Shown here: positions 1 to 39,976 of the stretch, piece by piece
How the letters are laid out: every line of letters begins with the position of its first letter
Position numbering within the stretch: position 1 is the first letter of the stretch
Source: Candidatus Nomurabacteria bacterium RIFCSPHIGHO2_02_40_30
GTDB taxonomy: Bacteria; Patescibacteriota; Minisyncoccia; Phycocordibacterales; UBA9973
DNA length: 64,000 nt
Reading direction: 5' to 3'
NCBI GenBank assembly: GCA_001785445.1
Contig: MFTV01000016.1
Location: forward strand, 95,653 to 159,652
Made by a program: the position numbers and the translations under genes
Notes under the pieces: generated by a model
What the model saw: only the letters and a program-made list of their open reading frames with translations
Databases searched by the model: none
What the model was told of the DNA's origin: nothing

Positions 1-103
1 TGTCATAGGATTTTGGTTGATTTTTAATAATAATTAGGCCGAGAAGGGGATAATATAGTTTTCCTTGTTATTACCCCCAAATGCTAAGCCTATCGGGGCT
101 ATA

Positions 104-403
104 CTAGCCCTTTTTATCTATCACGAGATCTTCAAATGACTTGAAAAGCTTTCTGATTTTCTGAGCTGTGTTTTCAACAATGATTGCGATATCTTTCATT
201 TCTTTATCTTTTCCATCTGCTATGTTTAATCTAATCATATGACTTAGAATTTCTTCAAAACAATCTCCAATAGCACGATGGTAGGTATGGTATCCATTTT
301 TAATGGATTGCGTTGGATTTGATTTAATTACCAAGATGTACTGACGATCATCTGCTAATAGCGATATAGTTGATGTTAAGTGTGCTATTAATTTCTGGTC
401 CAT
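104..403 (-). CDS. hypothetical protein (99 aa)
   Basis: Intact ORF with no recognisable motifs. It lies on the same strand as the downstream island genes. Confidence 0.3.
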   Translation of the reverse strand: MDQKLIAHLTSTISLLADDRQYILVIKSNPTQSIKNGYHTYHRAIGDCFEEILSHMIRLNIADGKDKEMKDIAIIVENTAQKIRKLFKSFEDLVIDKKG

Positions 404-993
404 ATTTTCTATTTAATTTAATTATTAAGAGAAAAAAGACGAGATTCTCAAAAATAGCCCTATATCGACTTTAAAATAGAGACTATTTAGGAGAAATAAA
501 CTAAAAAACATCTATATTAAGCTCCTGGTGCTGTTTTAGATGCCTTGAGAAACGATATGTTGTTGTTCTACGAAAATGAAAATAAGCTATTTAAAATGTT
601 TATATGTTGCTGTGTCCATGGTTAATATTTTGCTAATGAAAAATGTTCATGTTGCTGACTTATTTTTCTAATATACTCCTTTTGTTTTATTTGTCAAGAA
701 AAAAGGACTGAATTTAATTCCGAAACACAAATCTATAAGCGCACAGAGTAATACTTCCCTAATTATAGGGAAAATTTCATTTCAACTGGTCCTCCACCAT
801 TCCAAGTAGGTAAGCAGATAGATAACGAGTTCGGCGGCCGAATTGGTCCAATAACGTTGAGAAGCATCGTATAATAGCTCCTACCCAGCTAGGTAAGCTG
901 AGTAATGTATATAGAAATCACGAGTCAGGATTAATCTCGGCCGCCGAGGTTGATCATACTACTGCCAACAAATCTCAAGTTTTTCTGAAAAGG

Positions 994-2535
994 TTAAGGT
1001 TCAATTACAGATAAGATATTACCAAGCAATTGCCCTGTTGGAACGCTTAAACTTGAGAGTGACTCCACTAATTGGGCGTTGGCATTACCAGGAAGAAGAA
1101 TTATCTGAATAGTGTTGCCAGAAGCAACATCATTTGTTCCATCATCATCATAAATATCACCTCGCACTTCCACGATAACACTCTGGCTAGGCAGGAGTTT
1201 TAATGGGGCAAACGTTGCGCCTATGTCTAAATAATGGGGTTCAATGCTTTCTTCTTTCAACGAATAGGAATAAGAAATCTTAGTTCCATCAACATATAAG
1301 GCCACATTACGTAAACTATTAAGATTATCATTATTTGTTTTTAATGTTATACGAAGAGAGCCAAAACGTATCTCTTCATTAAAAGCCTCTAACTTATAAC
1401 GCGCTAAGACAACATTCGATGCGCCAGCAAGTACTGTGCCAGATGGTGAATCAGTTGATTTGGTTATGGTTAATCTTCCCGGCTCAATCGTGAATGTTGT
1501 TGCAATACTACTAATAGGTGTACCTGAAGGTGTTATTTTTTCCTTGGTATCAATTTCTACAACATTTATATCAGAACTATTTCTTAAGGAGAATTGTACT
1601 GTACGGCTATTTCCGCTTTTAATATCGCCAGTAAACCTGAAACTCACATTTCCAACACTCAATTTAATTGATGGAAAATCAAAATTGGCATAACCATTAG
1701 CATCTACAGAAGAAACGGAAGAAACAAAGTTTTCATTTATGTACAGTTTAAGATTAGAAAATGCACTAGTTTGCGCAGATCCTACATTCCGAAGTTTCAA
1801 GGAAGTTATTTCTAAATCTTTTACACCAACAGAGGCTACGGCTTCCCACAGAGTTTGTTCAATAACACCATTCTTGACTAAATTTATATTACCACCATTA
1901 TGACCTCCTGAAATAAAGGCAAGAGTTCCTATTTCTTTTTTGATTAATATTGTTGCTGGAGGAGTTGGTTTTGTACTAAAAGTAATTTCTTGATTAGCCC
2001 AGGCATTATTCGCTAGAGCAGTAATAGATCCTGTATAGGAACGACCAGCATTTAAATCTTTAATCTCCACATAATGAAGAGCGTCAACACCGTTTTTTGA
2101 TTGGTAAGCAGTTCCATTTAAAAGGAGTTTTGACTCACTTGCCATATTAGTTTGCCAGCTTATATATACAGAGGTTGTTTTAGGATCGATATTTACATTA
2201 GAGATAGACAGAGCAGCAGCTTTTGGTTCATTTATAGTTGGAGGAACTACTGGAGAAAGTGGATTGGGCTTATTTTCTTTTCCAGTTTCTTTTGTTTGAG
2301 AATTAATTGGGCTAGAAGTTTTCTTAACCGTCGGCTTACTATTTAAAATAACACCCTTCTTTTCCACTGGTTTGATAACCGGTGTTGGCTTTTGCGGCAC
2401 TTCAACTTTTATTTCCTCGACAGGTATAACTGGTTTTTTATTAAACCAAGAAAATGGGTTCCACCACGATGCTAAAGCAAATTGGGGTGATAAAAATACA
2501 ATGGAGATAAAAATTATTATTAGTGATTTCTTCAT
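994..2535 (-). CDS. secreted protein; signal peptide followed by conserved 'ASWWNPFSWF' motif, a Pro/Lys-rich linker and an FN3/Ig-like beta-rich C-terminal region
   Basis: N-terminus MKKSLIIIFISIVFLSPQFALA has a signal-peptide pattern (basic n-region, hydrophobic core). It is followed immediately by SWWNPFSWF and a low-complexity P/K/T linker. The segment 'VYISWQTN...YTGSIT' resembles a fibronectin-III fold. A paralogue is at 43309..44295. Confidence 0.6.
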   Translation of the reverse strand: MKKSLIIIFISIVFLSPQFALASWWNPFSWFNKKPVIPVEEIKVEVPQKPTPVIKPVEKKGVILNSKPTVKKTSSPINSQTKETGKENKPNPLSPVVPPTINEPKAAALSISNVNIDPKTTSVYISWQTNMASESKLLLNGTAYQSKNGVDALHYVEIKDLNAGRSYTGSITALANNAWANQEITFSTKPTPPATILIKKEIGTLAFISGGHNGGNINLVKNGVIEQTLWEAVASVGVKDLEITSLKLRNVGSAQTSAFSNLKLYINENFVSSVSSVDANGYANFDFPSIKLSVGNVSFRFTGDIKSGNSRTVQFSLRNSSDINVVEIDTKEKITPSGTPISSIATTFTIEPGRLTITKSTDSPSGTVLAGASNVVLARYKLEAFNEEIRFGSLRITLKTNNDNLNSLRNVALYVDGTKISYSYSLKEESIEPHYLDIGATFAPLKLLPSQSVIVEVRGDIYDDDGTNDVASGNTIQIILLPGNANAQLVESLSSLSVPTGQLLGNILSVIEP

Positions 2536-2710
2536 ATTTTTTTAATTATTAATTTGGCCCATCAGTATCACAATTAGGGTTACCATATATTTTAACACAC
2601 TCTGCTCTTTCAGCCGGACTGACATAAGTCGGTTCCCGTAGTCCTATCCAAAAAATTATTATGATTAAGATTATAATTACTATTGTTGTTATTTTCATGT
2701 GTTTATTATT

Positions 2711-2899
2711 CTATTTTTCTAATCCGTGCTTACTTAAGCAACCCTCAAAAGTTCTGCTGTAAAATGATCCAGAAATAGTCGCTTCTTCTCCGCATTCTTT
2801 TCTGATTTGTGTTGGCCTATAGGAATACCAGTAAAAGATAAATCCCAAAAAAACTAACATTATTAAAACTATATATTTATATAATCTTATTTTCTCCAT
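2711..2899 (-). CDS. small single-TM membrane protein (62 aa) with Cys-containing tail
   Basis: Hydrophobic stretch YIVLIMLVFLGFIFYWY. A similar unlisted small ORF (~49 aa, MKITTIVIIILIIIIFWIGL...C..C) lies at ~2548..2697 on the same strand. Confidence 0.35.
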   Translation of the reverse strand: MEKIRLYKYIVLIMLVFLGFIFYWYSYRPTQIRKECGEEATISGSFYSRTFEGCLSKHGLEK

Positions 2900-3171
2900 A
2901 GTTTTTTCTTTGTTTCTAATTTATAAACCCCGGAAGTAGGCAAACAAAAAGCCTGCAGCTAGGTTTAGTAGTCTTTCGACTACAAGTGTCCATTTCTGGC
3001 CACTGCTCGCTAAAGCAAATCCTAACTACAGGTTTTTTATGCTTTAGCGAGACTTATTCACCATGCTTTTATTTCTAAAAGTTTAGGTTACTTTCATATT
3101 AAGTTATTTATCAATAATACAACCTTTATCTAAAGGTAGCAAACCTTATAATTTCTAGCATCGCTGGGGAT

Positions 3172-3675
3172 TTACTCTAAAGCAGTTTCAAGTCCTTTTT
3201 GCGTAATATAGTAAACTGGTTTTTTATGAGACATTTTGGAAATGGAAAGAAATTTTTTCTCCACGAGAGATTTTAAGCTCCTTGTTAAACTAACCTGCCT
3301 CTTATCATAGTCCTCATGCAATTTCATTCTTTCTCTCCTGGAGTTTAATAACTCTTTTGCATCCGGAGATAATGAGTTATTTATTAATCTTATAGTCTCT
3401 TCTTTTGTTTTCTCGTCAATTGTCCCGGAGTTAAACGCTACTTCTGTTTGGGCCATAAGAAGTATTTTTTGCATTATTTCACCAGATTCTTCTTTTTCTG
3501 AGGCATATCGGTAGGGTCTTGGAATCCAATAAATTTTTTCTGTTTTATCTCCAAGACGTCTAGCTATTCTCGCCCTACCAATTCCAAAAAATCTCTTAAT
3601 GTTAAGTTTCCGAGATTCTTCTTTATATATTTCCAAAATTTGCTTTTGTAGTAAAGATAATCTTTCTTTTGCCAT
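3172..3675 (-). CDS. hypothetical basic protein (167 aa)
   Basis: Intact ORF, K/R-rich, possible winged-helix-like C-terminus. No diagnostic motif. Confidence 0.4.
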   Translation of the reverse strand: MAKERLSLLQKQILEIYKEESRKLNIKRFFGIGRARIARRLGDKTEKIYWIPRPYRYASEKEESGEIMQKILLMAQTEVAFNSGTIDEKTKEETIRLINNSLSPDAKELLNSRRERMKLHEDYDKRQVSLTRSLKSLVEKKFLSISKMSHKKPVYYITQKGLETALE

Positions 3676-3968
3676 TTAACATTAAGGATACAGCAAAACC
3701 AACGAAAAACAAGACATTTTCCCTAGATTTTTTGAAAATTTTTAGAGGTCCTTAATTTGAAAAGGCGAAAATATTCCAAACAACCCCTATCACCTTTTTC
3801 ATTTTTGGAGCTATGGACAGGCCTGCATACCTAAACCCCATACAGGCAATAGTAAGGAATTATTGATTCCAACTACCCCCCGAATCACTTATTTTAAATA
3901 CTCAATACCGCACATTAAAACTATTTTAAGTGATAGATGAATCAATATATTTATCTATTTAACCCTAT

Positions 3969-4583
3969 ATGGTCGTACTGGGGCACTTTACTAATTTAAC
4001 TAAAATTATTATGAAAACAACAACTTATAGAAATCACATAGCTTCTCCATTTCAGTTGGCGCCAAAGAAAACATTTACCAAGAAAGATCCGCTTAAAGAA
4101 GAATTGCTAAAGAATACAGGAACATTTAACCTTACCGCTATTATTGAAGAAGATATTCAAACATCATCTCAGTTTAAGCATATTCCTGGATTTTTAGGAT
4201 ATATCTGCACTCTCAAGATAGGTAATGAGGTTATAGGAATTGGTAGAGGTTCGGCAATACTAAATCGCATGAACAAATTTGTCGAACGTGGGATAAGATT
4301 TGCCTATGGCGCATCTATCGTCGATGCTGTCGTTAGGTCCACAAAAACTCTTGATGCTTTGTATCTCAAAACAAGCGGTCAAGAAAATCCTGGGGTACTA
4401 AAAGAAGAAACAGGCGAGATTGATTATACTCCTGAACTAGCTACAGATAAGCAAAAGTCTTATCTCCGAGAACTCATCAATATTAATGTTCTTGACGATA
4501 GAGAAAGAGACCAATGGGCTTCGCAAATTGACGAACTCACGAAAGATGAGGCCTCAGAAAAAATACAGTTTTTCATGAGATAA
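3969..4583 (+). CDS. hypothetical protein (204 aa; start possibly at 4011)
   Basis: Intact ORF with no diagnostic motif. It is followed by a bidirectional hairpin terminator at 4598..4632. Confidence 0.4.
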   Translation: MVVLGHFTNLTKIIMKTTTYRNHIASPFQLAPKKTFTKKDPLKEELLKNTGTFNLTAIIEEDIQTSSQFKHIPGFLGYICTLKIGNEVIGIGRGSAILNRMNKFVERGIRFAYGASIVDAVVRSTKTLDALYLKTSGQENPGVLKEETGEIDYTPELATDKQKSYLRELININVLDDRERDQWASQIDELTKDEASEKIQFFMR

Positions 4584-4597
4584 TAGTTAACATTAAA

Positions 4598-4632
4598 TGG
4601 CGAGGTCATTATTGGCTTCGCCATTTTTTGTT
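4598..4632. terminator. bidirectional rho-independent terminator hairpin between convergent genes
   Basis: aaATGGCGAggtcattattggctTCGCCATtttttg: 7 bp stem with a T-run on one side and an A-run on the other. Confidence 0.5.
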
Positions 4633-4654
4633 TCAACAATGAATCATTAAACAA

Positions 4655-7018
4655 CTAAACTTTTACCTGTACGGCATTTTCAACTAGTTCAATAAGTTGG
4701 CTTGTTTTAAGTAACTCACTTCTTAGTTTTCCTTTGTTTGATATATCTTTAATTGATAAAACTACAGCATAATTTTGGAAAATTGAGTCTTCTGCCATTT
4801 CGTTTAAGAGATGGTTTGAAACTGTCATTTGTATACCAATTTGTAAATCTAAGTAACTAAGTCGTCTAATTTTTTTCTTATAATGAATCGTATTAAAATA
4901 ATTTGATTTATAATTCTCCCAACTGTGAGAAGGAGCCAATGGTTGTACATCCATCTTACCTGTAGGTTTCCCATCTTCCATTTTAGGGAAAACAAGCCCG
5001 ACTGAACCTTGAAGGTTTGTCATTTTATATTCTTTAAAGTTTGTATTAATTGGCGGATTATATACAAGAGTGAAAGTTAGTTCCACATTCCCCCCAAAAA
5101 GATATTCAGGCAATTTTATTATTATTTTTTGTTTTTTTTCTGAAAAATTTATTGCATCTGCGTAAATGATCGTTACCGTATCTTCTGTGTCATCAAACAA
5201 AGCCGGTATATATTCAGCCTTACCGAAACCATATGCTCTCTTTACCATATCATCTTCTATTTTTGCTTGTGTAATTCTTGATGTTGAGTGAATAAGCAAA
5301 GCTTTAACAAGATTTGCTTTGTTTTGATTAAAAAGTGGTATTTGATTAGAAAGGTTTGATTTTTTAAGATAATCAAGAACGAGAGTAGCAGTTCTGGTAA
5401 CTAATGGTGCACTTAGACTTGTACCGGTATCTCTACAAAAAATATTATTTTCCATTACATCAACTCCATACTTATTAGTAGAAGCAATCATGTGAGCTGC
5501 TTCGTATTTATTTGTGGGATCTTTTTCTACATTTCCTCCATATGCAACTAATTCAGGTTTTTTAATATCGTTACGAAAACCTCCTTTTCTAGTAAAAGGA
5601 GAAGGGTAGTCTACCATATCACATATGGTGTCAGCATGATGAACAATTTCAGCAATTGAACCTACTGACAGGGCATTTATGGCATCAGAGGGGGCAGATA
5701 TGTTGCAAGTCTCATCATTAGTGTTGAATATACGGTTATACCCTAATCCGTAGTTTCCATTTTGATTTCCAACAGCAGCTATAAAAAGAATGTCCTTTTT
5801 ACTTGAAATACTATCAATTAACGCTGTGGAATCATCTATATCATTCTTTTCATTTATTGGCTCTTTAGAGGCAATTGAAAGATTGTAAAGAGTAACATCA
5901 AATTTATTAGTTGATTCTTTAATTGCTTTCATTAAGATATCTGTATCTACAGATATTGAACCATCTCTTTTCTTATTTAGAACTTGTACATCAATAATTT
6001 TAGCTACGGGTTCAAGTTTTTCATTCTTAGAGATTTTACTAAAAAAGTTATGCCCAAAAATAAATCTACTAGCAACACTTGTACCATGTTTTTTATCTGC
6101 AGTATCTGAACTTGAAAGATAATTAACTGGGTGAACTACAAAAGGATTAATTAGGGGATTATCTATTCCGCTATCAATAAGTACCACTTTTTCATCTGTA
6201 AGTAACGGCCCTATTTGCACAGAACCAAAACTTGTATTAGGAGTAGACCTTTGTACAATAAATTCTGGGTTAATCTTTATACGAGCAATATAACCATATG
6301 TAGGGTCAGTAAGAAGACTTAAAATATTTTTGATATCAATGTTAGCACGATAAGACATATTACTAATAAAAAATTCTATATCTCTTTTATGCAAATTATC
6401 CGGCCCTATTTTCTTAACTATTTCTTTAAATATGTTTTCATATTCTGATAATTTTCTTTCATAATGTATTGTGATAATGCAATCCAACTTTCCTTTATAG
6501 TCTCCCTTTATAAGTTCCTGAAGTTGCGTTGATATTCTATTTTCTATAGTTTTATTTTTGTCATAAATTTCAGTTACAGCAAAAACTTGACGAGCGATGT
6601 CTTTATTCTTACCACTACCTTGAAATGCATTATCAAATGATGCTAAGCCTGTTATGTTGTTTAATTTTTCAAAATCTTCTGGTAAACCACTTAAGGTAAA
6701 AAATATCTCTCCGTTACGCTCTCTTGTTTCGACAATTTCTAAACCAGCCTCAGCCCACAATTTTGTTGGTTCGCTTGATTTTGAAGATGATCTTTCGTCA
6801 AGTTTTATCTCAGCATAGTATCGTCTGTCAGCTTTATTATATTTTTTTCTAAAGTTATTAATAATACTATCTAGCGCAGAAATACGCTTCTTGTACTGAG
6901 AAGCATAGTAAGTGGGATTAGTTTTAACTTCTTTCTCCCAGTAAGCTTTCCAAAAAGGACCTCCTCCTGTCTTTTTCTCCCTCCTGCTTTTTTCTTTTGG
7001 TACAAGTAATGTATACAT
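4655..7018 (-). CDS. S8 family subtilisin-like serine peptidase with ~270 aa N-terminal domain of unknown function (ietS-like)
   Basis: Subtilase catalytic triad motifs are present in D-H-S order: 'VVLIDSGID', 'KKHGTSVAS' and 'DTGTSLSAPLV'. It lies 1 bp downstream of the AAA ATPase gene. Confidence 0.8.
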   Translation of the reverse strand: MYTLLVPKEKSRREKKTGGGPFWKAYWEKEVKTNPTYYASQYKKRISALDSIINNFRKKYNKADRRYYAEIKLDERSSSKSSEPTKLWAEAGLEIVETRERNGEIFFTLSGLPEDFEKLNNITGLASFDNAFQGSGKNKDIARQVFAVTEIYDKNKTIENRISTQLQELIKGDYKGKLDCIITIHYERKLSEYENIFKEIVKKIGPDNLHKRDIEFFISNMSYRANIDIKNILSLLTDPTYGYIARIKINPEFIVQRSTPNTSFGSVQIGPLLTDEKVVLIDSGIDNPLINPFVVHPVNYLSSSDTADKKHGTSVASRFIFGHNFFSKISKNEKLEPVAKIIDVQVLNKKRDGSISVDTDILMKAIKESTNKFDVTLYNLSIASKEPINEKNDIDDSTALIDSISSKKDILFIAAVGNQNGNYGLGYNRIFNTNDETCNISAPSDAINALSVGSIAEIVHHADTICDMVDYPSPFTRKGGFRNDIKKPELVAYGGNVEKDPTNKYEAAHMIASTNKYGVDVMENNIFCRDTGTSLSAPLVTRTATLVLDYLKKSNLSNQIPLFNQNKANLVKALLIHSTSRITQAKIEDDMVKRAYGFGKAEYIPALFDDTEDTVTIIYADAINFSEKKQKIIIKLPEYLFGGNVELTFTLVYNPPINTNFKEYKMTNLQGSVGLVFPKMEDGKPTGKMDVQPLAPSHSWENYKSNYFNTIHYKKKIRRLSYLDLQIGIQMTVSNHLLNEMAEDSIFQNYAVVLSIKDISNKGKLRSELLKTSQLIELVENAVQVKV

Positions 7019-7019
7019 A

Positions 7020-8135
7020 TTATTTTAAATTATCCCTTAAAGTTGTATACGCTATTCCAGAAATAGATTCAATCTCTCTTAATTTAAAACCAGCATCTTT
7101 TAATTCTTGGCTTAATTGATAAGATATTTTTTTTGAAGGTTTTTTTTGAGTATTTTCTGCATTTGCAATTGTTAAATACGATTTTGCCAACATCGCATTT
7201 GTAATTTTATCACCCCCAGACATAATAGAATACTTTTTTGCACTTTGAACAATATCAAAAATATCTGAACCATTTAGTCCTTCTGTTATTAACGATACCA
7301 AATTAAAATCAACATCATGGGGTGTTTTATCAAAATATAGTTTAAGTAGAAGTTTACGACTTTCCGTATCTGGTAGATCGAATCTTATCTTTAGGGGGAA
7401 CCTCCTCCATATGGCTTTATCTAGTATTTCATCATGATTAGTCGCACCAATAATTATTGATTTACCAGAAAAAAAATCTATATTTTGTAATAAAACAGTT
7501 ACAACTCTTTTTAGTTCTCCAAGCTCTTTTTCGTCTGACCTAAACTTAGCGATGGTATCAATTTCATCTAAAAGAAGAACAACGGACTCTTTTGATGCAA
7601 TATGAAAAATATCCCTTATATTTTTTCCTGTTTCTCCTAAAAATGAAGATATAAGTTCATCCAAACGTACCAATACAAGTGGAAAATCTAAATGTTGCGC
7701 AATAGCATTTGCAAGCAATGTCTTTCCTGTTCCTGGTGGTCCATAGAATAAAATTCTATTAGCAGGAAATAAATCGTGTTTTGATAATCTTTCAAAATCT
7801 TCCCATTCTCTAAGCAAATTTTGTACCTTAACTTTTGCTGAAGTGTTTAGCACCACTTCTTCCATTGTGACCTTTGGTCTATATTTCTTAATAAGACCAC
7901 TTTCCTTAGTAGTAGATATATCAATTAATTTTATATCATCGTTGGATGAAGCACCAGAAAAAGATTTTTTAAGTGTAGGTATTTTCTTTATAATGTTTGC
8001 AAGTTTTTTACTCGCACCCATTTTCCCATCTCTTTTTAACCTAAGAGACTCTTCGGTAAGAATATCTATTGCTTGCTGACCTTTGCCTTCAGAAAATAAT
8101 ATTGTTATTTTTTCTATTAAATTTAATGACGCCAT
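7020..8135 (-). CDS. AAA+ family ATPase (ietA-like)
   Basis: Walker A 'FYGPPGTGKTLL', Walker B 'VLLLDEID' and second region of homology 'IIGATNHDEILDKAIWRRF'. Classic AAA, not STAND. Confidence 0.8.
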   Translation of the reverse strand: MASLNLIEKITILFSEGKGQQAIDILTEESLRLKRDGKMGASKKLANIIKKIPTLKKSFSGASSNDDIKLIDISTTKESGLIKKYRPKVTMEEVVLNTSAKVKVQNLLREWEDFERLSKHDLFPANRILFYGPPGTGKTLLANAIAQHLDFPLVLVRLDELISSFLGETGKNIRDIFHIASKESVVLLLDEIDTIAKFRSDEKELGELKRVVTVLLQNIDFFSGKSIIIGATNHDEILDKAIWRRFPLKIRFDLPDTESRKLLLKLYFDKTPHDVDFNLVSLITEGLNGSDIFDIVQSAKKYSIMSGGDKITNAMLAKSYLTIANAENTQKKPSKKISYQLSQELKDAGFKLREIESISGIAYTTLRDNLK

Positions 8136-8246
8136 TTTCGTAATTCTTAATTATACTTAAATATAGGGATAATTATACTATATATTACGAAAAAAAGTTA
8201 ATATGCTTAATTCGTAATTATCCACAGGTTAAGTTATCAAACAATA

Positions 8247-9164
8247 CTATACAGCCAAATCATTTAATGGGTGTTTTGTCATCTGCCCTCGTAGGTGTTC
8301 AGCACTAGCAGATAAGTAAATTGTAGTAGTTTTAATATCGGAGTGCCCCATCATTCGGGACAGGGAATAAATATCCACCCCACCTTCAAGCATAAGAGTT
8401 CCAAAAGTATGCCTCAATTTATGAACAGTAAAAATTATTCCGGAAGATTTACGTACTTGTTCTACTAATTTTTTTAGACCATTTTCAGTAAAACCTATAT
8501 TACCGCGCAGAGAAGAGAAAAACTCTGGGTTAGTTTTATTTAATCTCTTCCTCTCTTCCTTATACTTTTTCAAACTTTGCGCCAAAGTGTAACTAATCGG
8601 CACTACTCGATCTTTGTTCCCTTTACCTTGTCGAACAAAAATTGTTAGATTTTCTATATCTACATCGGCGAATTTTAGATTTATCAACTCCATTTTACGC
8701 AGACCAGTAAATATAAATGTAGAAAATATAGCATGGTTGCGATAGCGTAAAAATTTATATTCATAAGGGTAATTATAGACAATTTCCATTAGTCGTAATG
8801 CGGTCTGTTTAGTTAGTTTTATCGGCAATTTTCTCTCCATTTTGGGTTTTTCAATATCAAGAATTGGATTTTTTTCAAGATATCCTTGCTTCATACACCA
8901 ACGAAAAAATACCAATAAAGTTTTATGATAGACAATGAATGTATTTACCGACCATTTTCTCTCTGTCCGGCCCCAATAAAACAAATTCCTGACATTATCA
9001 TCCGTTACTTTATTGATTTCACTAACTCCTGCAATCCGACAATAACCCTTTATAACATTCTTATACCTCTTTAAAGTATTCTTTGAATACCCTTTAATAG
9101 ATGCTGAATACTCACAAAACTTCTGCGACAATATTTCGATGTCCATATCATATTTACATCTCAA
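8247..9164 (-). CDS. int: tyrosine site-specific integrase/recombinase
   Basis: C-terminal catalytic region 'HKLRHTFGTLMLEGGVDIYSLSRMMGHSDIKTTTIYL' (R..HxxR..Y). It sits directly beside the 3' end of tRNA-Lys. Confidence 0.85.
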   Translation of the reverse strand: MRCKYDMDIEILSQKFCEYSASIKGYSKNTLKRYKNVIKGYCRIAGVSEINKVTDDNVRNLFYWGRTERKWSVNTFIVYHKTLLVFFRWCMKQGYLEKNPILDIEKPKMERKLPIKLTKQTALRLMEIVYNYPYEYKFLRYRNHAIFSTFIFTGLRKMELINLKFADVDIENLTIFVRQGKGNKDRVVPISYTLAQSLKKYKEERKRLNKTNPEFFSSLRGNIGFTENGLKKLVEQVRKSSGIIFTVHKLRHTFGTLMLEGGVDIYSLSRMMGHSDIKTTTIYLSASAEHLRGQMTKHPLNDLAV

Positions 9165-9273
9165 GCAGAAAATTTATTTTTGAAGTAGTTTTTAGCCCAC
9201 GACCTGTTCACCGCGGGAGGTGGTCGTTCAAAATGACCTATTTTCCAAAATAAGCTTTAGTTTATAAACAATG

Positions 9274-9346
9274 TGCGCCCGGTTGGGATCGAACCAACGA
9301 CCTTATCCTTAAAAGGGATCTGCTCTACCGACTGAGCTACGGGCGC
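9274..9346 (-). tRNA. tRNA-Lys(TTT)
   Basis: GCGCCCGTAGCTCAGTCGGTAGAGCAGATCCCTTTTAAGGATAAGGTCGTTGGTTCGATCCCAACCGGGCGCA. Cloverleaf with a 7 bp acceptor stem, T-loop TTCGATC, anticodon loop CTTTTAA. CCA is not encoded. Confidence 0.85.
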
Positions 9347-9430
9347 ATTTATACAATCTAACGACCTACCAAAACAACTACGGGCGCATATTTAAAAATA
9401 TATATGAAATAAGGCTAAAAATCAAGAAAT

Positions 9431-21004: not shown

Positions 21005-22102
21005 TTATCTGCTAATTGGCATTATTAAATAGGTAAAGCTTGGGTCAGAAACAGGAGATACTACCAGAGGGCGAGAAGTGCCGGACAGTTTTATAGATAA
21101 ACTGTCTGTACTGATTGAAGAAAAGCAGTCTAAAAAATACTTATAATTGAACCCAAGTTCTACATTTTCTCCAGTAACGGCTCCGTCTAAGTATGTTTTA
21201 TTTTCTCCAATATCGTTATTGGTAGAAGATAAAACAAAAATCTTTTCTTTTGGGTTAATAGTCAAGTTTACTTGGTTAAATTTATCTGAAAAAATGTTTG
21301 AGAGCTTTAACGCATTTAGTAAATCCTGTTTTAATATTGTGGCGGTAGTTTTGATATCTTTGGGTATAATTTGGCGGTAGTCTGGGAAAATGCCGTCAAT
21401 GACTCGCGAGGTTAAATAAATATTGTCGGAGGAAAAAGAAATCTGGTTTTTATTGAAACACACTTTTACGACACCTGCATGTTCTCCAAAAATTCTCAAG
21501 ATTTCTCCGACATTTTTAAAAGGGATAAGAATTCCTAAAATCTCTTCCAGTCCTTTCACTTTAATCTTTTTTTCAGCAAGCCTGAAAGAGTCAGTAGAGA
21601 CAAACACTAGCCCATCGTCGTTCGAGTAGATAAAAACACTTGATATTTCTGGTTTTATATCCGATGCCGCAGAACTATAATACACTGCCTTTATTCCCTC
21701 GACGAGCTTCTTAGCTTCTATCTCAAAAATTTTTCCGGAAACTTTTGGTATGGTTGGAAAGTCTTCATATGGCTGACCCTTTAGTTTTATTTGGTTTTTT
21801 TTGCTCTTTATTAATAAATTGCCGTCAACCCCCTCCAGTGAAATACTTTCATTTTGAAAAATGTTGGAAAAAACGCCACTCAACACTGAACCAGATATTG
21901 CTACAAGTCCTTCTTTTTCTACCTTGGCTCCTATTTCAACCTCTACCCCCAAACTCAAATTTGTTGACCGAAGTTTTAAAGACTTGTTTGACGCTATTAA
22001 TAAAATAGAGTTTAAAACAGGCAGAGTTAAATTTTTCCCAGTAATTCTTTCAACTTGGGAAACGGCATTTTTTATTTCTTCTACTTTACATTCTAGTTTC
22101 AT
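21005..22102 (-). CDS. dnaN: DNA polymerase III beta sliding clamp
   Basis: Typical DnaN N-terminus 'MKLECKVEEIKNAVSQVERI...LTLPVLNSILL'. 365 aa, immediately downstream of dnaA. Confidence 0.9.
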   Translation of the reverse strand: MKLECKVEEIKNAVSQVERITGKNLTLPVLNSILLIASNKSLKLRSTNLSLGVEVEIGAKVEKEGLVAISGSVLSGVFSNIFQNESISLEGVDGNLLIKSKKNQIKLKGQPYEDFPTIPKVSGKIFEIEAKKLVEGIKAVYYSSAASDIKPEISSVFIYSNDDGLVFVSTDSFRLAEKKIKVKGLEEILGILIPFKNVGEILRIFGEHAGVVKVCFNKNQISFSSDNIYLTSRVIDGIFPDYRQIIPKDIKTTATILKQDLLNALKLSNIFSDKFNQVNLTINPKEKIFVLSSTNNDIGENKTYLDGAVTGENVELGFNYKYFLDCFSSISTDSLSIKLSGTSRPLVVSPVSDPSFTYLIMPISR

Positions 22103-22301: not shown

Positions 22302-23648
22302 TTATTTAAACAAAGTTCTTATTTTTTCTAGTTCTTGCAGTAGTTGGGGGTCATTTTTTAAATCTGCTTTAATTTTCAAGCATGAGTGTATGACTGTGGT
22401 ATGGTCTTTACCACCCAGCTTCTGTCCTATTAAAGGGTAAGAAACATTGAAATCTTCTCGAAGTAAATACATTACTATCTGTCTCGCTTTGACAATTTCT
22501 TTTTTTCTTGTTTTTTCGTAAATTGAGGCTTCTTCTAGTTGGTAGTTTTCAGCCACTAGCTTAACAACATCTTTTATTGCCATATTTTTCTTGGGTTTCA
22601 TGTTGTTTTTTAGCAAGTTTTTAACCTCGGGGAGAGTAAGAGTTCTGTTCTTAAGGCGGTACTGCATTACGAGTATGTTTAAAGAACCCTCAAGTTCGCG
22701 AATATTTCCCTCCACCGCAGAGGCGACGTACTCCACAATCTCCTTATCTAGTTCTATATTAAGCTCTTGCAGTTTAACTTTCAAAATTGCAAGACGAGAT
22801 TCGTACTCTGGCGGAGAGATATCGACAATCATCCCGGCGGCAAAGCGGGATTTTAGACGGTCTGCCAGCTCTGGAATGTAGTTGGGGTGTTTGTCAGAAG
22901 AAAAAATAATCTGCTTATTATTTTCATAAAAAGTGTTGAATGTATGGAAGAGTTCTTCTTGAATTTTTTCCATTTTACCAATAAATTGAATGTCGTCTAT
23001 GATTAATAGGTCGTATTTACGATACTTTTCTTTAAAGGAATTTGCTTTATTGTTTTGCAGTGAATTTATGAAGTCCGTGGCAAATTTTTCTAAGGTCATA
23101 TAGTGCACTTTTTTATTTTCGTGTTTCTCTTTTATGGTGTTACCTACTGCTTGGATAAGATGAGTTTTGCCAAGTCCGGTGGGGCCGTATATAAAAAACG
23201 GATTATACTTAGTTCCCGGACTGTCTATGATAGCTTGAGCCGCGGCGTAAGCCAATTCGTTGAAAGTTCCCACAATAAATGAGTTGAAGTGATAACGTGG
23301 ATTTAAGTTATCTTCCGGGTTGATGTATAAGTCTCTTAAAGGCAACTCCTTGTTTACATAAGTTTCCACAGAATTTTCTACTTCTTCCTGCTTAGTCGCC
23401 TCTATTTTCGTAATAGTGTATTCCACTGCGCGCATATTTTCGTAGGCATCGGCGATTGTTTTAGTAATAAGCTTGTGATACTTATTCATTAACCAGTCAC
23501 GAACAAATTCGTTGGGCACACCTATATAGATAACCCCAGTTTCCTCTTTTATAATTGATGTATTTTTGAACCAAGTACTGAAATTTGCCTTAGAGATGCC
23601 TGTTTCTATCTCACCTAAACAATTTTTCCAAAGCTGTTTCGTATTCAT
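22302..23648 (-). CDS. dnaA: chromosomal replication initiator DnaA
   Basis: AAA+ 'IYGPTGLGKTHL', 'LLIIDDIQF' and C-terminal DNA-binding helix 'GGKDHTTVIHSCLKI'. Confidence 0.95.
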   Translation of the reverse strand: MNTKQLWKNCLGEIETGISKANFSTWFKNTSIIKEETGVIYIGVPNEFVRDWLMNKYHKLITKTIADAYENMRAVEYTITKIEATKQEEVENSVETYVNKELPLRDLYINPEDNLNPRYHFNSFIVGTFNELAYAAAQAIIDSPGTKYNPFFIYGPTGLGKTHLIQAVGNTIKEKHENKKVHYMTLEKFATDFINSLQNNKANSFKEKYRKYDLLIIDDIQFIGKMEKIQEELFHTFNTFYENNKQIIFSSDKHPNYIPELADRLKSRFAAGMIVDISPPEYESRLAILKVKLQELNIELDKEIVEYVASAVEGNIRELEGSLNILVMQYRLKNRTLTLPEVKNLLKNNMKPKKNMAIKDVVKLVAENYQLEEASIYEKTRKKEIVKARQIVMYLLREDFNVSYPLIGQKLGGKDHTTVIHSCLKIKADLKNDPQLLQELEKIRTLFK

Positions 23649-31567: not shown

Positions 31568-32410
31568 TTAAGCGTTTTGGTAGGGTAATTTATTAAACAA
31601 ACTAAACTCTTGAGAAATTTTCTGTTTCTTAAATCTTATAAAATCAAGCTTATATTTATTTCTAATTTTGCCATCATGTAAAAGTCTGTCATTTATCATC
31701 TTGTAATATTCTGGATGAATTTCGCAGCTGATAAAATTGCGTTTAAGTTTTTTACAAAGTGTTAATTCACTCCCACTACCACCAAATAGTACAAAGACAT
31801 CATCGTTTACTTTAGTGCAGGACTTTATCAGCATTTCAACAAGAGATAGGGGTATTTGGCAAGCATGAAATGTCTTGTCTTTAGAAACATTTTTTACAAG
31901 ATCAAAATAAAACCAGCTGTATGGCATCCTGCCTAAATGCCCAGCTGCAATACGCCCCTTAATTCTTTTATCTTGAGGATTTTGGTATGGTAAAGCCACT
32001 TGTTCTTTATAAAAATTATTATTTTTTGATTTTGTTGCATGTAAAATAGAACGATGCGCAGTTGTAAAACGTCTTGGTGTGTGTCCAACATTAGTATTAT
32101 ACGTCCAAACATAATCTTGAACATTAAAAGCATTGTCATCTAGATACTTTACTCGCAGATGAGCATTTTGCTTGGGGTAATTCATCATAAAAAGATTGCC
32201 GGTTGGTTTCAACACCCTTATGCATTCTTGGGTCAGTTTTATATACCAATCAATGTAATCATCCCACTTTGCTTTGTAATTTTTGCCCGCGTAATTAATC
32301 CCGACATTGTAATCCGGATCGCCATATATCATATCAACCGAATTGTCCGGCATTTTAGCCAATATTTTCATTACATCATCATTGAATACTTTGTTTTTGA
32401 ATTTTTCCAT
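31568..32410 (-). CDS. beta-class DNA methyltransferase (N6-adenine or N4-cytosine), type II R-M
   Basis: Motif IV 'GDPDYN' near the N-terminus and motif I 'VLFGGSGS' near the C-terminus (beta permutation). Confidence 0.8.
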   Translation of the reverse strand: MEKFKNKVFNDDVMKILAKMPDNSVDMIYGDPDYNVGINYAGKNYKAKWDDYIDWYIKLTQECIRVLKPTGNLFMMNYPKQNAHLRVKYLDDNAFNVQDYVWTYNTNVGHTPRRFTTAHRSILHATKSKNNNFYKEQVALPYQNPQDKRIKGRIAAGHLGRMPYSWFYFDLVKNVSKDKTFHACQIPLSLVEMLIKSCTKVNDDVFVLFGGSGSELTLCKKLKRNFISCEIHPEYYKMINDRLLHDGKIRNKYKLDFIRFKKQKISQEFSLFNKLPYQNA

Positions 32411-32417: not shown

Positions 32418-33251
32418 CTAATTACTCTGAGTAATTAACTTATATTCGGCAGATTTTATAAAAACAATCGATGTTATGTCTAGTGGTTTCTTAAATGTAT
32501 ATGCCCACAATTTCAGTAAATCGCCACCTTTGGATTTTTCTCTCAGAACATAAACGCAAAATATATTCTTAATTTTTCCTTTTAATTCAGTCTTTCGGTT
32601 GGCATTGAAATAATATAAAAACGGATGATATAGTTGATAAATAGAAAAATTCTCAGGTCTACCATTCTTGCCTTCAAATATACCAATAATGCCCTGAAAT
32701 TCAATCGTAAGATCAATTTCAATCTGTATTGAATCAAGTTGGAGTTTTATTCCCTTTCCAACAAAATATTCGAGACTAGTTTTGGTTCTATGTGGAAAAT
32801 AAGTTTTCGGACGTTTTTCAATATCTATATCTTCAAATTCTCTATCTTGGTTAAAAATAAAATGATGTAAAATTCTTTGATTGTTTGCCACTGAAAGTAT
32901 ATTACTTTCACTCGAATTATATTGATTGAGCAAGCTTTTCTTATATTTCCAATCTATCTTTTTTTGAATTGGCTCAAATTTATGAAAAACCTTATCTATG
33001 CCTTTGATAAATTGATGTTTCCCTTGTCCTTTGTGAAGGATGGCGTAATTATTTTTTATCAAAATTTCAGGAAATTTTTTTATATTATCAAGTTTAGTAA
33101 CATCAAATGGATTACCAAACCCAACCTTTTTACAAATATTTTTAACTAAATCATTGTGAAAAATATAGTTATTTTTTCTTCTGCAAACTCGAAAAAGTTC
33201 TGTTATTACTTGGTTTTTCTTACCTATTTTCATATTCTTATTATATATCAT
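32418..33251 (-). CDS. putative type II restriction endonuclease (cognate to adjacent methyltransferase)
   Basis: Unrecognisable 277 aa protein, 7 bp upstream of the MTase on the same strand. Assigned by context only. Confidence 0.4.
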   Translation of the reverse strand: MIYNKNMKIGKKNQVITELFRVCRRKNNYIFHNDLVKNICKKVGFGNPFDVTKLDNIKKFPEILIKNNYAILHKGQGKHQFIKGIDKVFHKFEPIQKKIDWKYKKSLLNQYNSSESNILSVANNQRILHHFIFNQDREFEDIDIEKRPKTYFPHRTKTSLEYFVGKGIKLQLDSIQIEIDLTIEFQGIIGIFEGKNGRPENFSIYQLYHPFLYYFNANRKTELKGKIKNIFCVYVLREKSKGGDLLKLWAYTFKKPLDITSIVFIKSAEYKLITQSN

Positions 33252-36599: not shown

Positions 36600-37514
36600 T
36601 TAGATAGTATTCCAGTTATCCCATAAGTTTACAAGTGCGTTGATTGTTGTGTTTGCGTCTGTTATGTTCCATTGATGTTTTGAAGTACCAAAAAGTTGAT
36701 GTTGATTACTCTGTGTTACGAAACTGCTTATGTCATGTTCGTTGAGATACTTTAGTATATTAAAAACTGCTGTGTTGTTATCTCCAGTAAACATTTCATT
36801 CGGTACATTATAAACTAAACTTTGTAGAAAATATGAAGGGGCAGTTTCTTCTGACAAAAGACCCTTTTCAACGGCATAAGACCTAGCATTTTTAATAATG
36901 CGTACAACTCTCTTAAATAGATTTGAAGTTGCTTGATGTTTAGCAACTCCATTATTGTAGTGTTGGTCAGGATAATTTATTATTGTCTCTCCTGTTGCCT
37001 TATGATTAAGTAATATCCCTTCTACTTTTGAGTGATTATGTAATCCTAAAAAATATGAATATGTCCGATGTGCAATGACTGGAACAATGTCTGCCTTAAG
37101 ACGACCAGAATTTTTCAATAGTTTTATAGATTTATTACCAGTTTCATCTATAAAAGCATTCCCATAGTAGGCCTTTAGGGCAATAAGTACATCTCTGCGT
37201 AAATGAGCCAAAATGTAATCTGCAGTAAAGTAGGTTTGTTCGTGTAATAAATATTGTTCTCTGGGTAATAATAACTTGTTTGACTGAAAGACATCCAATC
37301 TAACAAGAACATCAACATCACTATCCCCTCTGGTATTTGTATCGTTTGCATATGACCCCTGTAGGTCAATTTTTACCTTGCCTGATGTTATCATTTCACG
37401 GATAGGCGAACTACTACCACTTAGGGCATTCCTAACTGACTGATATGTTGTACTTGAAAGGTCTTTTGACCCCTGTTTTGCCCAAGTATCTAATTGGTTT
37501 GCTGGTATAGACAT
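36600..37514 (-). CDS. CD-NTase/SMODS-like nucleotidyltransferase (pol-beta superfamily)
   Basis: 'DLQGSYANDTNTRGDSDVDVLV' fits GS-x(9-13)-[DE]h[DE]h, and a later 'KADIVPV' supplies a third acidic residue. At 304 aa it is far larger than minimal MNT toxins. Confidence 0.5.
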   Translation of the reverse strand: MSIPANQLDTWAKQGSKDLSSTTYQSVRNALSGSSSPIREMITSGKVKIDLQGSYANDTNTRGDSDVDVLVRLDVFQSNKLLLPREQYLLHEQTYFTADYILAHLRRDVLIALKAYYGNAFIDETGNKSIKLLKNSGRLKADIVPVIAHRTYSYFLGLHNHSKVEGILLNHKATGETIINYPDQHYNNGVAKHQATSNLFKRVVRIIKNARSYAVEKGLLSEETAPSYFLQSLVYNVPNEMFTGDNNTAVFNILKYLNEHDISSFVTQSNQHQLFGTSKHQWNITDANTTINALVNLWDNWNTI

Positions 37515-37674
37515 ATCTATAAGTGGAGTTTACCCCTATGTAATAAATAAATCAAACTTATGTGGATAAAGTTGAAAAAAGTAATGAAACTGTTAACTTA
37601 CTTACTTGATTTTTTAGAAAAAAGGAGTATATTCTCATTTATATAGAAACCGTGTAAAAATTATTTTAATTATT

Positions 37675-38043: not shown

Positions 38044-38185
38044 AAATACGAAAGCAATTATTTTAGCAAGCGAGTCAGATAAAAATCAGAGTTCAAATGT
38101 ATCTCTTAATCTAATAAAAGGGTGTTGCGTGATTCTGTGTTCACATCTCGTGAATGTTTCTTTATTAGTTGGTGGTCTATACCAT

Positions 38186-39976
38186 CTATAAAACAAATGT
38201 CTTAGGAAAATACATTAGAGGGTTTAATTTGATTATCTGTTGTCTTCTTTCCGTTTCAGAAATCGTCTTTAAGTCTAGTATAAGTGGGAATGACTCTTTT
38301 TGTTCTTGTGAAACTCCGTTAACTAAACTAATGTTTGTTGTCTTCGTATAACTGGGGAACCTGAAAACAACATTAACATAATCCTCTTTTGCATAGAGGG
38401 TAATTCGTTCAATGAATAGAAATACGATTTTTTGCTTTTCTTCATACGAAACATTTTCTAGTCTATTTTTTATTTGTTCGTATACTTTTTTAAGAGACAC
38501 CTCTCTTTCTTCTTTTTCTTTTTTAGTAGTAGACAACTGGTGTAAATGTATCGTTTCATCCTTGAGTTTTTGTTCGTCATTTTTATATTGACTAACATAC
38601 ATTTCATATTGTTTTTTAGAAATCTGTCCATTCACATAAAGTTCATTGGCTCTGTCTCTCTTTTCACTGATTGAAGATGACTCAGTTTCAATTTCTGTTA
38701 ATCGTATTTTAGTTAACTTGGGGTTTTCTGTTTTATAGATGTATTGTTTTAACGGATGAAACATATTTTGTGGATTTTTGAGTATTTCTTTTAAACAATA
38801 CCAGATGGGTTCTAATCTTGCCTCAGAGTATTGAGGACACCACTCACATCTTTTTGTAGTGCCAACAGCGTCATCTTTTCTATAAATACCATGATAGTAT
38901 CTTCCATTACCGTGCTCCCAGTTTTTTCGTGGGGGTTGAAACCCACTAAACATCTTATAATTGCATTTACCACAATAGATAAGTTTTGAATACAAATACT
39001 CTCGTTTCTGATTTCTTTTTGAAAATTCCCTATTTCTCATTAGTTGTTGTTTTGCGAGTTCAAAAGTTTCTGGTGAAATAACCACGGGTGTTTCTATTTG
39101 TACCCAGTCTTCTTTTGGTCTCAATTTATTTTTATCTGTTATACTTGTAAGATTGTTAAAAGGTCTCTTGTATTTTCTATAATAGAAAACTCCAGTATAA
39201 ACTTCGTTAGTTAAAATTCTTCCTATCGTTCGTTTATACCAATAGTTGTTAGTGGTTCGTTTTTTGACTTTAGTAAAATACGGAGTGGGTATTTTCATTT
39301 GGTTCATTCTTCTCTCTAATTCATTTAGAGACAATCTTTCGTCAATGAGCCATTTAAAAAGTTTCTGAACTATTTTTACTTCTTCTGGAACAAGAAGAAG
39401 TTTTTTTGTTTTTTTGTCAACTTTAAAACCAAAAGGAGGCACACCAGTCACCCACTTTCCTGCTTTAGCGGCACATAATTTTCCATTTGATGTCCTTTCT
39501 CTGATAGTTTCTCTTTCCATTTCTGCGACAGCTCCTAAAAGAGTAGTCATAAATTTTCCTGTACTACTTGTAGTATCAAATGCTTCAGTTGTTGAACGGA
39601 AACCAACATTATAATTTCCAAGAAGTTCAATGGCTCCCAGTAATAATGTGGTCTTTCTAAAAAATCTATCTAATCTATAAACAAGAACAACATCAAACTC
39701 CTTGTTTTGTGCGTCAGTAAATAATTGTTTTAGTTGTGGTCTAGAATCAACGGGTAAAGTACCAGAAAAACCTTCTTCAGAATAGATGTGTTTTTCTTCT
39801 AAAGAATAATCTTGAGACTGGACAAAGGCGAGTAGTTTTTCTTTTTGTACTTCAAGTCCGTATCCTGAAATTTGTTCCCCTGTCGATACTCGGAGATACA
39901 AGGCGACTCTTATTTTATTTTTTGTTTCAGTTTCCATTTTCATAATTCTTTTGACGACAGAGTTTAAAGAGTTCAT
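38186..39976 (-). CDS. large serine recombinase (probable start ~39943/39937)
   Basis: Resolvase-type N-terminal catalytic domain 'IRVALYLRVSTGEQ' with catalytic Ser. Large recombinase C-terminal domain with Cys-rich zinc ribbon (CGKCNYKM...C..C). Confidence 0.9.
   Translation of the reverse strand: MNSLNSVVKRIMKMETETKNKIRVALYLRVSTGEQISGYGLEVQKEKLLAFVQSQDYSLEEKHIYSEEGFSGTLPVDSRPQLKQLFTDAQNKEFDVVLVYRLDRFFRKTTLLLGAIELLGNYNVGFRSTTEAFDTTSSTGKFMTTLLGAVAEMERETIRERTSNGKLCAAKAGKWVTGVPPFGFKVDKKTKKLLLVPEEVKIVQKLFKWLIDERLSLNELERRMNQMKIPTPYFTKVKKRTTNNYWYKRTIGRILTNEVYTGVFYYRKYKRPFNNLTSITDKNKLRPKEDWVQIETPVVISPETFELAKQQLMRNREFSKRNQKREYLYSKLIYCGKCNYKMFSGFQPPRKNWEHGNGRYYHGIYRKDDAVGTTKRCEWCPQYSEARLEPIWYCLKEILKNPQNMFHPLKQYIYKTENPKLTKIRLTEIETESSSISEKRDRANELYVNGQISKKQYEMYVSQYKNDEQKLKDETIHLHQLSTTKKEKEEREVSLKKVYEQIKNRLENVSYEEKQKIVFLFIERITLYAKEDYVNVVFRFPSYTKTTNISLVNGVSQEQKESFPLILDLKTISETERRQQIIKLNPLMYFPKTFVL

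Follow-up and report, generated by a model that had tools for sequence, protein, structure and literature searches.

A predicted IetAS-type ATPase and subtilase pair, divergent and CPR-specific, in the backbone of a tRNA-Lys island of a Nomurabacteria-like genome

We analyzed a 64-kb stretch of DNA (the window) from contig MFTV01000016.1 of Candidatus Nomurabacteria bacterium RIFCSPHIGHO2_02_40_30, an ultrasmall bacterium from groundwater, and within it a pair of genes, ietA and ietS, that encode an AAA+ ATPase and an S8-family peptidase (Table 1). The two genes are adjacent and co-directional with the ATPase gene first, which is the two-gene architecture of IetAS systems, and the junction between them reads ...AAA TAA T ATG..., leaving a 1-nt spacer between the ietA stop and the ietS start. 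An earlier note on this DNA had described a classical AAA ATPase followed 1 bp downstream by a 787-aa peptidase with S8 motifs, and had proposed an ietAS-like defense system. The coordinates of the open reading frames (ORFs) and the junction agree with that description. The ATPase has Walker A (GPPGTGKT, residues 132-139), Walker B (LLLDEID) and the second region of homology (GATNH...WRRF), and the peptidase has DSGID (D282), HGTSVAS (H311) and GTSLSAP (S534). Pfam detected AAA (PF00004, E = 2e-31) and AAA_lid_3 in IetA and Peptidase_S8 (PF00082, E = 7e-29, residues 277-599) in IetS, with no Pfam match in the ~275-aa N-terminal or ~190-aa C-terminal region of IetS, the latter of which the note had left unmentioned. 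We propose, with a probability of roughly 0.75, that the pair is an IetAS toxin-antitoxin or abortive-infection module that forms part of the backbone of a ~10.45-kb tRNA-Lys island in a Nomurabacteria-like genome.

The cassette is AT-rich, as the note had stated. Its GC content of 30-32% is at the low end of the range in the window (30-46%), and equally low stretches exist elsewhere in the window. The hairpin that separates ietS from the convergent gene downstream is likely a bidirectional terminator.

Table 1. Positions in the window of the ietAS cassette, its predicted control elements and other features.
Feature	Position	Strand	Length	Remarks
ietA	7020..8135	-	371 aa	AAA+ ATPase ORF
IetA N-terminal region (aa 1-115)	7791..8135	-		Family-conserved, without known domain; alignable in IetA relatives from within and outside CPR
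IetA classic-clade AAA+ module (aa ~116-330)	7146..7790	-		Pfam AAA and AAA_lid_3; invariant columns
IetA C-terminal tail (aa ~331-371)	7023..7145	-		G-I-P/A-Y-T-T-L-R-D-N motif; candidate helix-turn-helix
ietS	4655..7018	-	787 aa	S8 peptidase ORF
IetS N-terminal region (aa 1-276)	6191..7018	-		Helical hairpin, two beta-alpha-beta-type modules and linker; propeptide-like
IetS subtilase S8 catalytic domain (aa 277-600)	5219..6190	-		D282, H311, oxyanion N418, S534; Pfam, Foldseek
IetS C-terminal all-beta domain (aa 601-787)	4658..5218	-		IetS-specific; PDLC02197 match; IteS alignment through aa 771
Hairpin	4595..4626		14-bp stem	Separates the stop codons of ietS and the convergent gene; terminator scan
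ietA promoter/operator region, predicted	8134..8221	-		-35/-10-like at 8201-8196 and 8177-8172
ATTACGAA box 1	8211-8218	-		Forward, about -81 from ietA start
ATTACGAA box 2	8184-8191	+		Inverted, about -56, within promoter spacer
ATTACGAA box 3	8137-8144	-		Forward, -7, abutting ietA ATG
Tyrosine integrase int1	8247..9146	-	299 aa	From ATG; 305 aa from upstream TTG at 9164
tRNA-Lys(UUU)	9273..9346	-		ARAGORN; 3' half (9273-9321) is attL copy of 49-nt direct repeat
ORF	3969..4583	+	204 aa	Island cargo, convergent to ietS
ORF	3172..3675	-	167 aa	Island cargo
ORF	2711..2899	-	62 aa	Island cargo
ORF	2549..2698	-	49 aa	Island cargo
Signal-peptide protein	994..2535	-	513 aa	Island cargo, largest
ORF	104..403	-	99 aa	Island cargo
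Nucleotidyltransferase-domain ORF	36600..37514			Second low-GC region
Large serine recombinase	38186..39976			Second low-GC region
Prim-Pol + AAA_25 primase	40314..42170			Second low-GC region
ResIII helicase	45306..47849			Adjoins N6_N4 DNA methylase
N6_N4 DNA methylase	47855..49846			Adjoins ResIII helicase

Profile searches placed both proteins in the IetAS family over nearly their full lengths. The top PADLOC match of the ATPase was the IetA model PDLC02196 (E = 3.2e-91, residues 32-370 of 371 against model positions 32-368 of 374), and that of the peptidase was the IetS model PDLC02197 (E = 8e-67, residues 44-786 of 787 against 40-744 of 749). Three further IetA models and six further IetS models also matched the respective proteins. 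Because the hidden Markov model E-values are about 1e-91 and 1e-67, a chance match is ruled out. The best NCBIfam models were likewise the anti-phage equivalogs IteA (NF042959) for the ATPase and IteS (NF042956) for the peptidase. A pair of an ATPase and an S8 peptidase is said to be the defining architecture of the ietAS antiphage system of Gao et al. 2020, and IetAS of Agrobacterium pTiC58 is reportedly the subject of Yamamoto et al. 2009. The ietAS-like identity proposed in the note is upheld by the family match, the architecture and the intact catalytic residues, and a standard run of PADLOC or DefenseFinder would very probably call the locus ietAS.

The similarity extends beyond the enzymatic domains. 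When the C-terminal 188 aa of IetS were searched in isolation, they matched positions 561-744 of the 749 in PDLC02197 (E = 3e-8), as expected for the IetS-specific domain. Profile-profile comparison of the N-terminal regions only, between the candidate phyla radiation (CPR) clade that includes the window pair and the canonical clade, gave probabilities of 90-94.5% (E = 1.5e-6 to 1.5e-8 over 191-234 columns). The N-terminal domain of IetS had been called unknown; this holds with respect to Pfam, and it no longer holds at the level of profiles, where a likeness to the canonical IetS N terminus is apparent. The N-terminal regions of the two proteins are also conserved together in the CPR clade. 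The three-part toxin architecture appears to be the same and the profiles match, and we therefore classify the two genes as a divergent member of IetAS.

The pair is also clearly separated from the better-known members. Compared to a pair on a Dongshaea marina plasmid that includes a PGAP-annotated IteS, the identity is 27% for IetS over aa 278-771 (BLASTP) and 40% for IetA in the AAA core. The relatives of IetS that share 34-79% identity with it were all full length (~785 aa), and all of those with a named source were from CPR/Patescibacteria; the next tier of relatives was at most 27% identical. Neither sequence nor fold searches of the PDB turned up a solved IetA or IetS. By these sequence comparisons, the pair is a divergent, CPR-specific member of the known IetAS family, with a function that is presumed from that membership.

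The catalytic residues for both predicted activities are intact, as expected of a competent IetAS pair. In IetA, the residues that define classic-clade AAA+ unfoldases were all present: Walker A G132...K138-T139, Walker B D190-E191, the sensor-1 residue N233 and the arginine fingers R244-R245 of the second region of homology are invariant in 15 relatives, and the lid is present. In the pore-1 loop (F165-L166-G167), L166-G167 is invariant in the 15 relatives and the preceding residue is F or Y in all but one. The family also has a block of its own, A196-K-x-R-x-D...E204-LGELKR-VVT-LLQ217. The closest solved relatives of IetA in the PDB were Cdc48/p97 D2 domains (E = 3e-56). Because the aromatic-hydrophobic-Gly pore loop is intact, IetA is best read as a putative substrate-threading unfoldase. 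With Vps4/CdvC, PAN and Cdc48 D2 it shares Walker A and B, this type of pore loop, a two-arginine second region of homology and an N-terminal non-ATPase domain. It differs from them in the A196-Q217 block, in a helix-turn-helix (HTH)-like tail, and in having a subtilase as its partner rather than the proteasome or ESCRT-III.

The tail of IetA is a candidate DNA-binding element. Y54-T-T-L57 was invariant in 34 tail sequences, and the Pfam matches to the tail were almost exclusively to HTH families (HTH_23, HTH_20, HTH_psq, HTH_28, HTH_7, HTH_8 and others; best E = 0.004, sub-threshold). In a profile search of the PDB with the tail, the HTH of AspA (E = 0.05) was the first match over a single stretch; two entries ranked above it score through short internal repeats only.

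In IetS, the three catalytic residues and the oxyanion N418 were invariant in 28 relatives. Invariant positions in these relatives were also found in the N-terminal region (F22, W27, K80, P84, G111, A131, R143, R161, Y193 and P260) and in the C-terminal domain (Y653-N-P-P656 and W700). An AlphaFold2 model of full-length IetS (pLDDT 87.2, pTM 0.84) has a helical hairpin at 24-59, beta-alpha-beta-type modules at 67-147 and 148-249, a low-confidence linker at 250-276, the subtilase core, and then an all-beta C-terminal domain at 614-777. The best Foldseek match of the full-length model in the PDB was pro-Tk-SP, an enzyme with a propeptide and a beta-jelly-roll domain (3afg; E = 2e-24 over 630 columns), and the next were KP-43 and unprocessed pro-subtilisins. 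The N terminus alone gave weak matches to tandem BMC/ACT-type folds (E > 1e-3). Canonical IetS relatives have the precomputed domain annotations PF27210 and PF27160.

From the model, the N terminus of IetS appears to consist of tandem ferredoxin-like modules resembling subtilase propeptides. The N-terminal sequence (MYTLLVPKEKSRREKK...) has no signal peptide or transmembrane segment, and the reading of IetS as a cytoplasmic, zymogen-like subtilase is moderately supported. Pro-Tk-SP (3afg) and KP-43 (1wmd) are secreted and shed their propeptides, whereas IetS lacks a signal peptide and is paired with an AAA+ ATPase. IetS also has an extra ~150 aa, comprising the helical hairpin and a second module, ahead of its propeptide-like module.

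The DNA between int1 and ietA, a spacer of 111 bp, contains a predicted promoter and three copies of a short sequence that overlap it. The promoter, TTAACT-18-TATAAT (8201-8172), was the best sigma-70-like match in positions 3600-9400. The octamer ATTACGAA occurs six times in the window, and three of the six are in this spacer. We counted the hexamer TACGAA/TTCGTA in a 103-nt segment made up of the ietA start codon and the preceding 100 nt, for 13 non-redundant CPR loci whose proteins are 44-79% identical to those in the window, with the expectation taken from the rest of the loci. There were 26 occurrences compared to 0.64 expected, a 40-fold excess that none of 2000 shuffles reached. The positions are fixed across the 13 loci, at -79 to -86, -54 to -60 and -7 to -10. 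The pattern was reproduced in three of three held-out loci, in one of them only after correction of an over-long gene call. Of the 17 distinct loci examined in the CPR clade, 16 have three TTACGAA boxes overlapping the ietA promoter. The boxes were not found upstream of the Dongshaea ietA. In one homologous locus (L156, 5425-6639), the deposited 404-aa IetA call is probably too long; from the ATG at 5539 the protein would be ~366 aa, and three TACGAA boxes are then at the family-typical -81, -56 and -7.

The boxes accompany ietAS even where there is no int1/int2-type integrase in the stretch examined, and the factor that binds them is therefore most simply encoded by the cassette. Because the boxes are conserved at fixed positions and the IetA tail is HTH-like, it is reasonable but unproven that IetA autorepresses by binding the TTACGAA boxes through its tail.

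The cassette is next to a tyrosine integrase gene (int1) and a tRNA-Lys gene, and together these are at one end of an integrated element. Int1 matched Pfam Phage_integrase (E = 1e-30), with a SAM-like N-terminal domain, and a PHROG integrase family (E = 1e-51). The attachment (att) site is a 49-nt direct repeat with 47 of 49 positions matching. In the parent contig (L002) the two copies are at 7698-7746, which is window 9321-9273, and at 18151-18199, a spacing of 10,453 bp. There is no second copy of the tRNA-Lys 3' end within the window; the attR copy is outside, ~1.1 kb past the left end of the window and 7 nt before uvrB. Past window position 1, the contig encodes a second tyrosine integrase, int2 (309 aa), followed by uvrB and uvrA. 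The island is thus ~10.45 kb, with int1 and int2 in the same orientation at opposite ends (the int2/attR end is L002 17032-18199).

The island genes are absent from related genomes. Genomes anchored on polA and syntenic with the window were all metagenome-assembled genomes of Candidatus Nomurabacteria, Paceibacterota or Patescibacteria. None of 80 such relatives has ietA, ietS, int1 or int2. In 41 syntenic relatives holA and uvrB are 121-3596 bp apart, compared to 10,621 bp here, and in relatives tRNA-Lys abuts uvrB, leaving the locus with each of the features of a tRNA-integrated island. Given the att repeats and the absence from relatives, the cassette is part of a strain-specific integrative island and not a housekeeping locus.

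These findings bear on the possibility that the pair has a housekeeping role in protein quality control as an ATP-dependent protease/chaperone couple, resembling the two-component AAA+ proteases, which the note had named as the result that would overturn its proposal. An AAA+ unfoldase with intact pore loops encoded in one operon with a protease fits such a role. However, none of the 80 closest syntenic genomes carries the pair, the cassette is in an att-bounded island here and in non-syntenic mobile contexts elsewhere, and the top profiles are IetA and IetS rather than Lon, Clp or FtsH. The data contradict a housekeeping role, and we consider it very improbable. The claim in the note that the cassette is in a defense-island setting was right about the adjoining tyrosine integrase and tRNA-Lys; the setting itself is the backbone of an integrative island and not a classical multi-system defense island.

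The cassette has been recovered repeatedly. NCBI contig MFVQ01000007.1 (GCA_001786145.1) and a JGI contig of 258 kb also encode exactly this IetS protein. An identical IetS is indexed in 138 assembly-collection blocks, and 21 of the 24 contigs carrying it that were read have the same neighbors. These data, together with the full-length ORFs, the intactness of every catalytic residue and the conserved promoter/operator architecture, contradict the view that the pair is left over from a transferred cassette and is decaying and non-functional, for which we see hardly any likelihood. Decay of this kind may have occurred in another homologous locus, on a Patescibacteria contig (L157, 8001-10385), where the IetS homolog is split into ORFs of 545 and 245 aa, likely by a frameshift or in a pseudogene. 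The split gene adjoins genes for an ADP-ribosylglycohydrolase and a serine recombinase.

We compared about 20 homologous loci. Every CPR-clade locus whose sequence extends far enough upstream has an IetA homolog immediately before IetS, and most of the distant IetS loci likewise have an IetA-like gene upstream. The surroundings of the pair vary. In L005 it is next to a type I restriction-modification (R-M) system and a GIY-YIG/DUF4357 gene; in L154 it has helicase-Fic-NERD genes on one side and a type I R-M system on the other; and in L007, L156 and L157 it is among large serine recombinases. Three loci are sister islands with the same two-integrase design as the window island, at tRNA-Lys (L155 and L099) or tRNA-Thr (L096). 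The att sites are 10,375 bp apart in L155 and 10,073 bp apart in L099, and the recurrent two-integrase sister islands span ~9-10.4 kb. In L099 there is a third copy of att another 1.6 kb away, which may be the remnant of a tandem element.

Identity between sister islands is 61-76% for int1 (76% between the window and L155), 42-61% for int2, 47-53% for IetA and 38-47% for IetS. The cargo between ietS and int2 has no similarity between the two islands that were compared, those of the window and L155. On these comparisons, ietAS thus belongs to the island backbone yet evolves fast. In IMG/VR, the viral contigs contained a single distant relative with 22% identity, and a phage-borne origin was dropped on the basis of that single match.

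The unrelated cargo is also relevant to a reading of the pair as a secretion or maturation pair like the type VII mycosin and EccA, which would process the secreted 513-aa protein of the island. NCBIfam gave weak matches to a type VII secretion system mycosin (E = 5e-10) and to EccA (E = 1e-6), and the signal-peptide protein is indeed encoded in the island (994..2535). The scores, however, fall well short of the cut-offs (39 versus 279 bits for mycosin, 27 versus 467 bits for EccA), IetS lacks both a signal peptide and a membrane anchor, no secretion or ESX genes are nearby, and the cargo is not conserved between sister islands whereas ietAS is kept. We rejected a mycosin/EccA identity on the scores and the missing signal peptide; the data contradict this reading, and the chance that it is correct seems slight.

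The island setting raises a different possibility, that the main role of the pair is that of an addiction (post-segregational killing) module stabilizing the island in the manner of sgiAT or the pTiC58 ietAS, with defense absent or secondary. Since the setting is the backbone of an integrative island, and not a classical multi-system defense island, a role in island maintenance is equally compatible with it. In four related tRNA islands ietAS is in the conserved backbone (int1 - ietAS - cargo - int2) while the cargo is unrelated, the family was first described as plasmid- or island-stabilizing toxin-antitoxin systems (PMC13069673, PMC5006074), and the putative autorepression through the boxes and the HTH-like tail would be typical of antitoxins. 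Set against this, CPR pairs that have no int1/int2-type integrase in the stretch examined adjoin type I R-M systems or Fic, NERD and helicase genes, which is the behavior of defense islands, and the much faster divergence of IetA and IetS than of the integrases between sister islands (38-47% identity for IetS versus 61-76% for int1) is in keeping with an arms race. One role does not preclude the other. We regard island stabilization as a serious alternative, although an exclusive or predominant role of this kind seems to us on the unlikely side.

Members of the family studied in other bacteria provide the functional framework. IetS is the toxin and IetA the antitoxin, defense needs the protease activity, and an ietA mutant was not clonable (PMC13069673). 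Toxin-antitoxin behavior has been established for the pTiC58, Salmonella Genomic Island 1 (SGI1) and E. coli homologs (PMC13069673, PMC5006074). A B. cereus homolog expressed in B. subtilis confers phage protection through abortive infection upon expression of a phage protein (bioRxiv 10.1101/2022.08.27.505566), and the SGI1 homolog sgiAT stabilizes its integrative island (PMC5006074).

Compared to IetAS of pTiC58 and the anti-phage ietAS, the window pair has the same gene order (AAA+ then S8), similar sizes (~370 and ~750-800 aa), what appears to be the same three-part build of IetS (N-terminal region, S8 domain and C-terminal beta domain) and near full-length PADLOC matches. It differs in its low identity to the equivalog-level pair (~27% for IetS and ~40% for IetA), in belonging to a separate CPR-only clade, and in that its clade has its own TTACGAA boxes. 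SgiAT (S026/S025) of SGI1 is an IetAS homolog on an integrase-bearing island that promotes island maintenance (PMC5006074), and the window pair is likewise part of an island backbone. SGI1 is a 43-kb mobilizable resistance island of Proteobacteria at trmE, whereas the CPR islands are ~10 kb, have two integrases and are at tRNA-Lys or tRNA-Thr; these islands were compared by description. The ietHAS variant (Liu-DS4), which includes a SNF2 helicase, shares the A and S core, and in it the protease is needed for defense and the ATPase is antitoxin-like (PMC13069673). The window pair has no helicase gene; its upstream neighbor is an integrase gene and its downstream neighbor a convergent hypothetical gene.

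Several observations weigh against our assignment of the pair to an IetAS toxin-antitoxin or abortive-infection module. Both proteins fall far short of the NCBIfam equivalog cut-offs (280 versus 510 bits for IetA, 175 versus 900 bits for IetS). These cut-offs are narrow, and the ATPase beside the PGAP-named IteS on the Dongshaea marina plasmid also fails (456 versus 510 bits). In isolation, the N-terminal 275 aa of IetS and the N- and C-terminal regions of IetA had no match in PADLOC or Pfam, and the N-terminal 275 aa of IetS had no BLAST match to annotated IteS proteins. The HTH assignment of the IetA tail is built on sub-threshold matches. We know of no experimental work on IetAS in any CPR organism, and in the literature searched there was no paper linking ietAS with Patescibacteria or CPR bacteria. 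The molecular mechanism of IetAS is not established even in the model systems (PMC13069673).

If the pair is an IetAS module, we infer its anti-phage activity from family membership only, and we likewise infer an unfoldase-gated zymogen step, autorepression and the biological role in the CPR host. IetS would be made as a zymogen-like cytoplasmic enzyme in which the propeptide-like N-terminal modules and the C-terminal beta domain silence the subtilase. IetA, as a single-ring unfoldase of the Cdc48/Vps4 type, would keep IetS harmless at the expense of ATP, through holding or remodeling it or else through unfolding molecules that have become activated. IetA would probably also repress its own promoter through the HTH-like tail and the three TTACGAA boxes, limiting expression of the operon. 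A phage product that disables, diverts or titrates IetA, or loss of the island followed by decay of IetA, might then free IetS. Proteolysis by the freed IetS would arrest or kill the cell, so that infection is aborted or island loss is punished. In its fullest form, the proposal is that CPR IetAS is the addiction/defense backbone of an undescribed family of ~10-kb two-integrase tRNA-Lys/tRNA-Thr islands in Nomurabacteria/Paceibacteria, with an IetS zymogen gated by IetA and IetA also acting as autorepressor on the three boxes; we offer this combined version tentatively and with considerable doubt.

IetAS is an experimentally validated anti-phage and plasmid-stabilizing system (PMC13069673). 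With the present locus, it gains a divergent subfamily from CPR bacteria, which are ultrasmall and host-dependent. It provides three testable leads for the family: the propeptide-like build of the toxin, the HTH-like tail of the ATPase and the three-box operator. The int1 - ietAS - cargo - int2 type of island, compact and recurring at tRNA-Lys or tRNA-Thr genes, could mark horizontal transfer in CPR genomes. The basic classification is unchanged by these leads; what is new is the CPR-specific clade, the two-integrase island and the mechanistic leads themselves.

The remaining genes of the island in the window (1..4583) had no significant family in Pfam, PADLOC, NCBIfam or PHROGs. The 513-aa cargo protein has an N-terminal signal-peptide-like segment, is Ser/Thr/Asn-rich and beta-rich, and has no counterpart in the sister island L155. 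At the integration site, a 32-nt copy (75% identical) of the 5' part of tRNA-Lys is present at 9366-9397, separated by 20 nt from the tRNA gene on its upstream, non-island side. A 20-nt repeat at 3630 and 9242 was judged to be due to chance. Among the polA-anchored relatives (L009-L088), the tRNA-Lys between holA and uvrB occurs in either orientation, which suggests repeated inversion or re-insertion at this spot.

Other parts of the window also contain genes of mobile elements or possible defense systems. Positions 36600-49846 form a second low-GC mobile/defense region (Table 1), in which the ResIII helicase and N6_N4 DNA methylase genes (45306-49846) look like a type III R-M pair. An N6_N4 DNA methylase gene at 31568..32410 is directly followed by an ORF of 277 aa (32418..33251), in the kilobase with the lowest GC content in the window (0.30), and these two genes are possibly a type II R-M system. 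The window also contains dnaN (21005..22102) and dnaA (22302..23648), and the region of the chromosomal replication origin is therefore only ~14 kb from the island.

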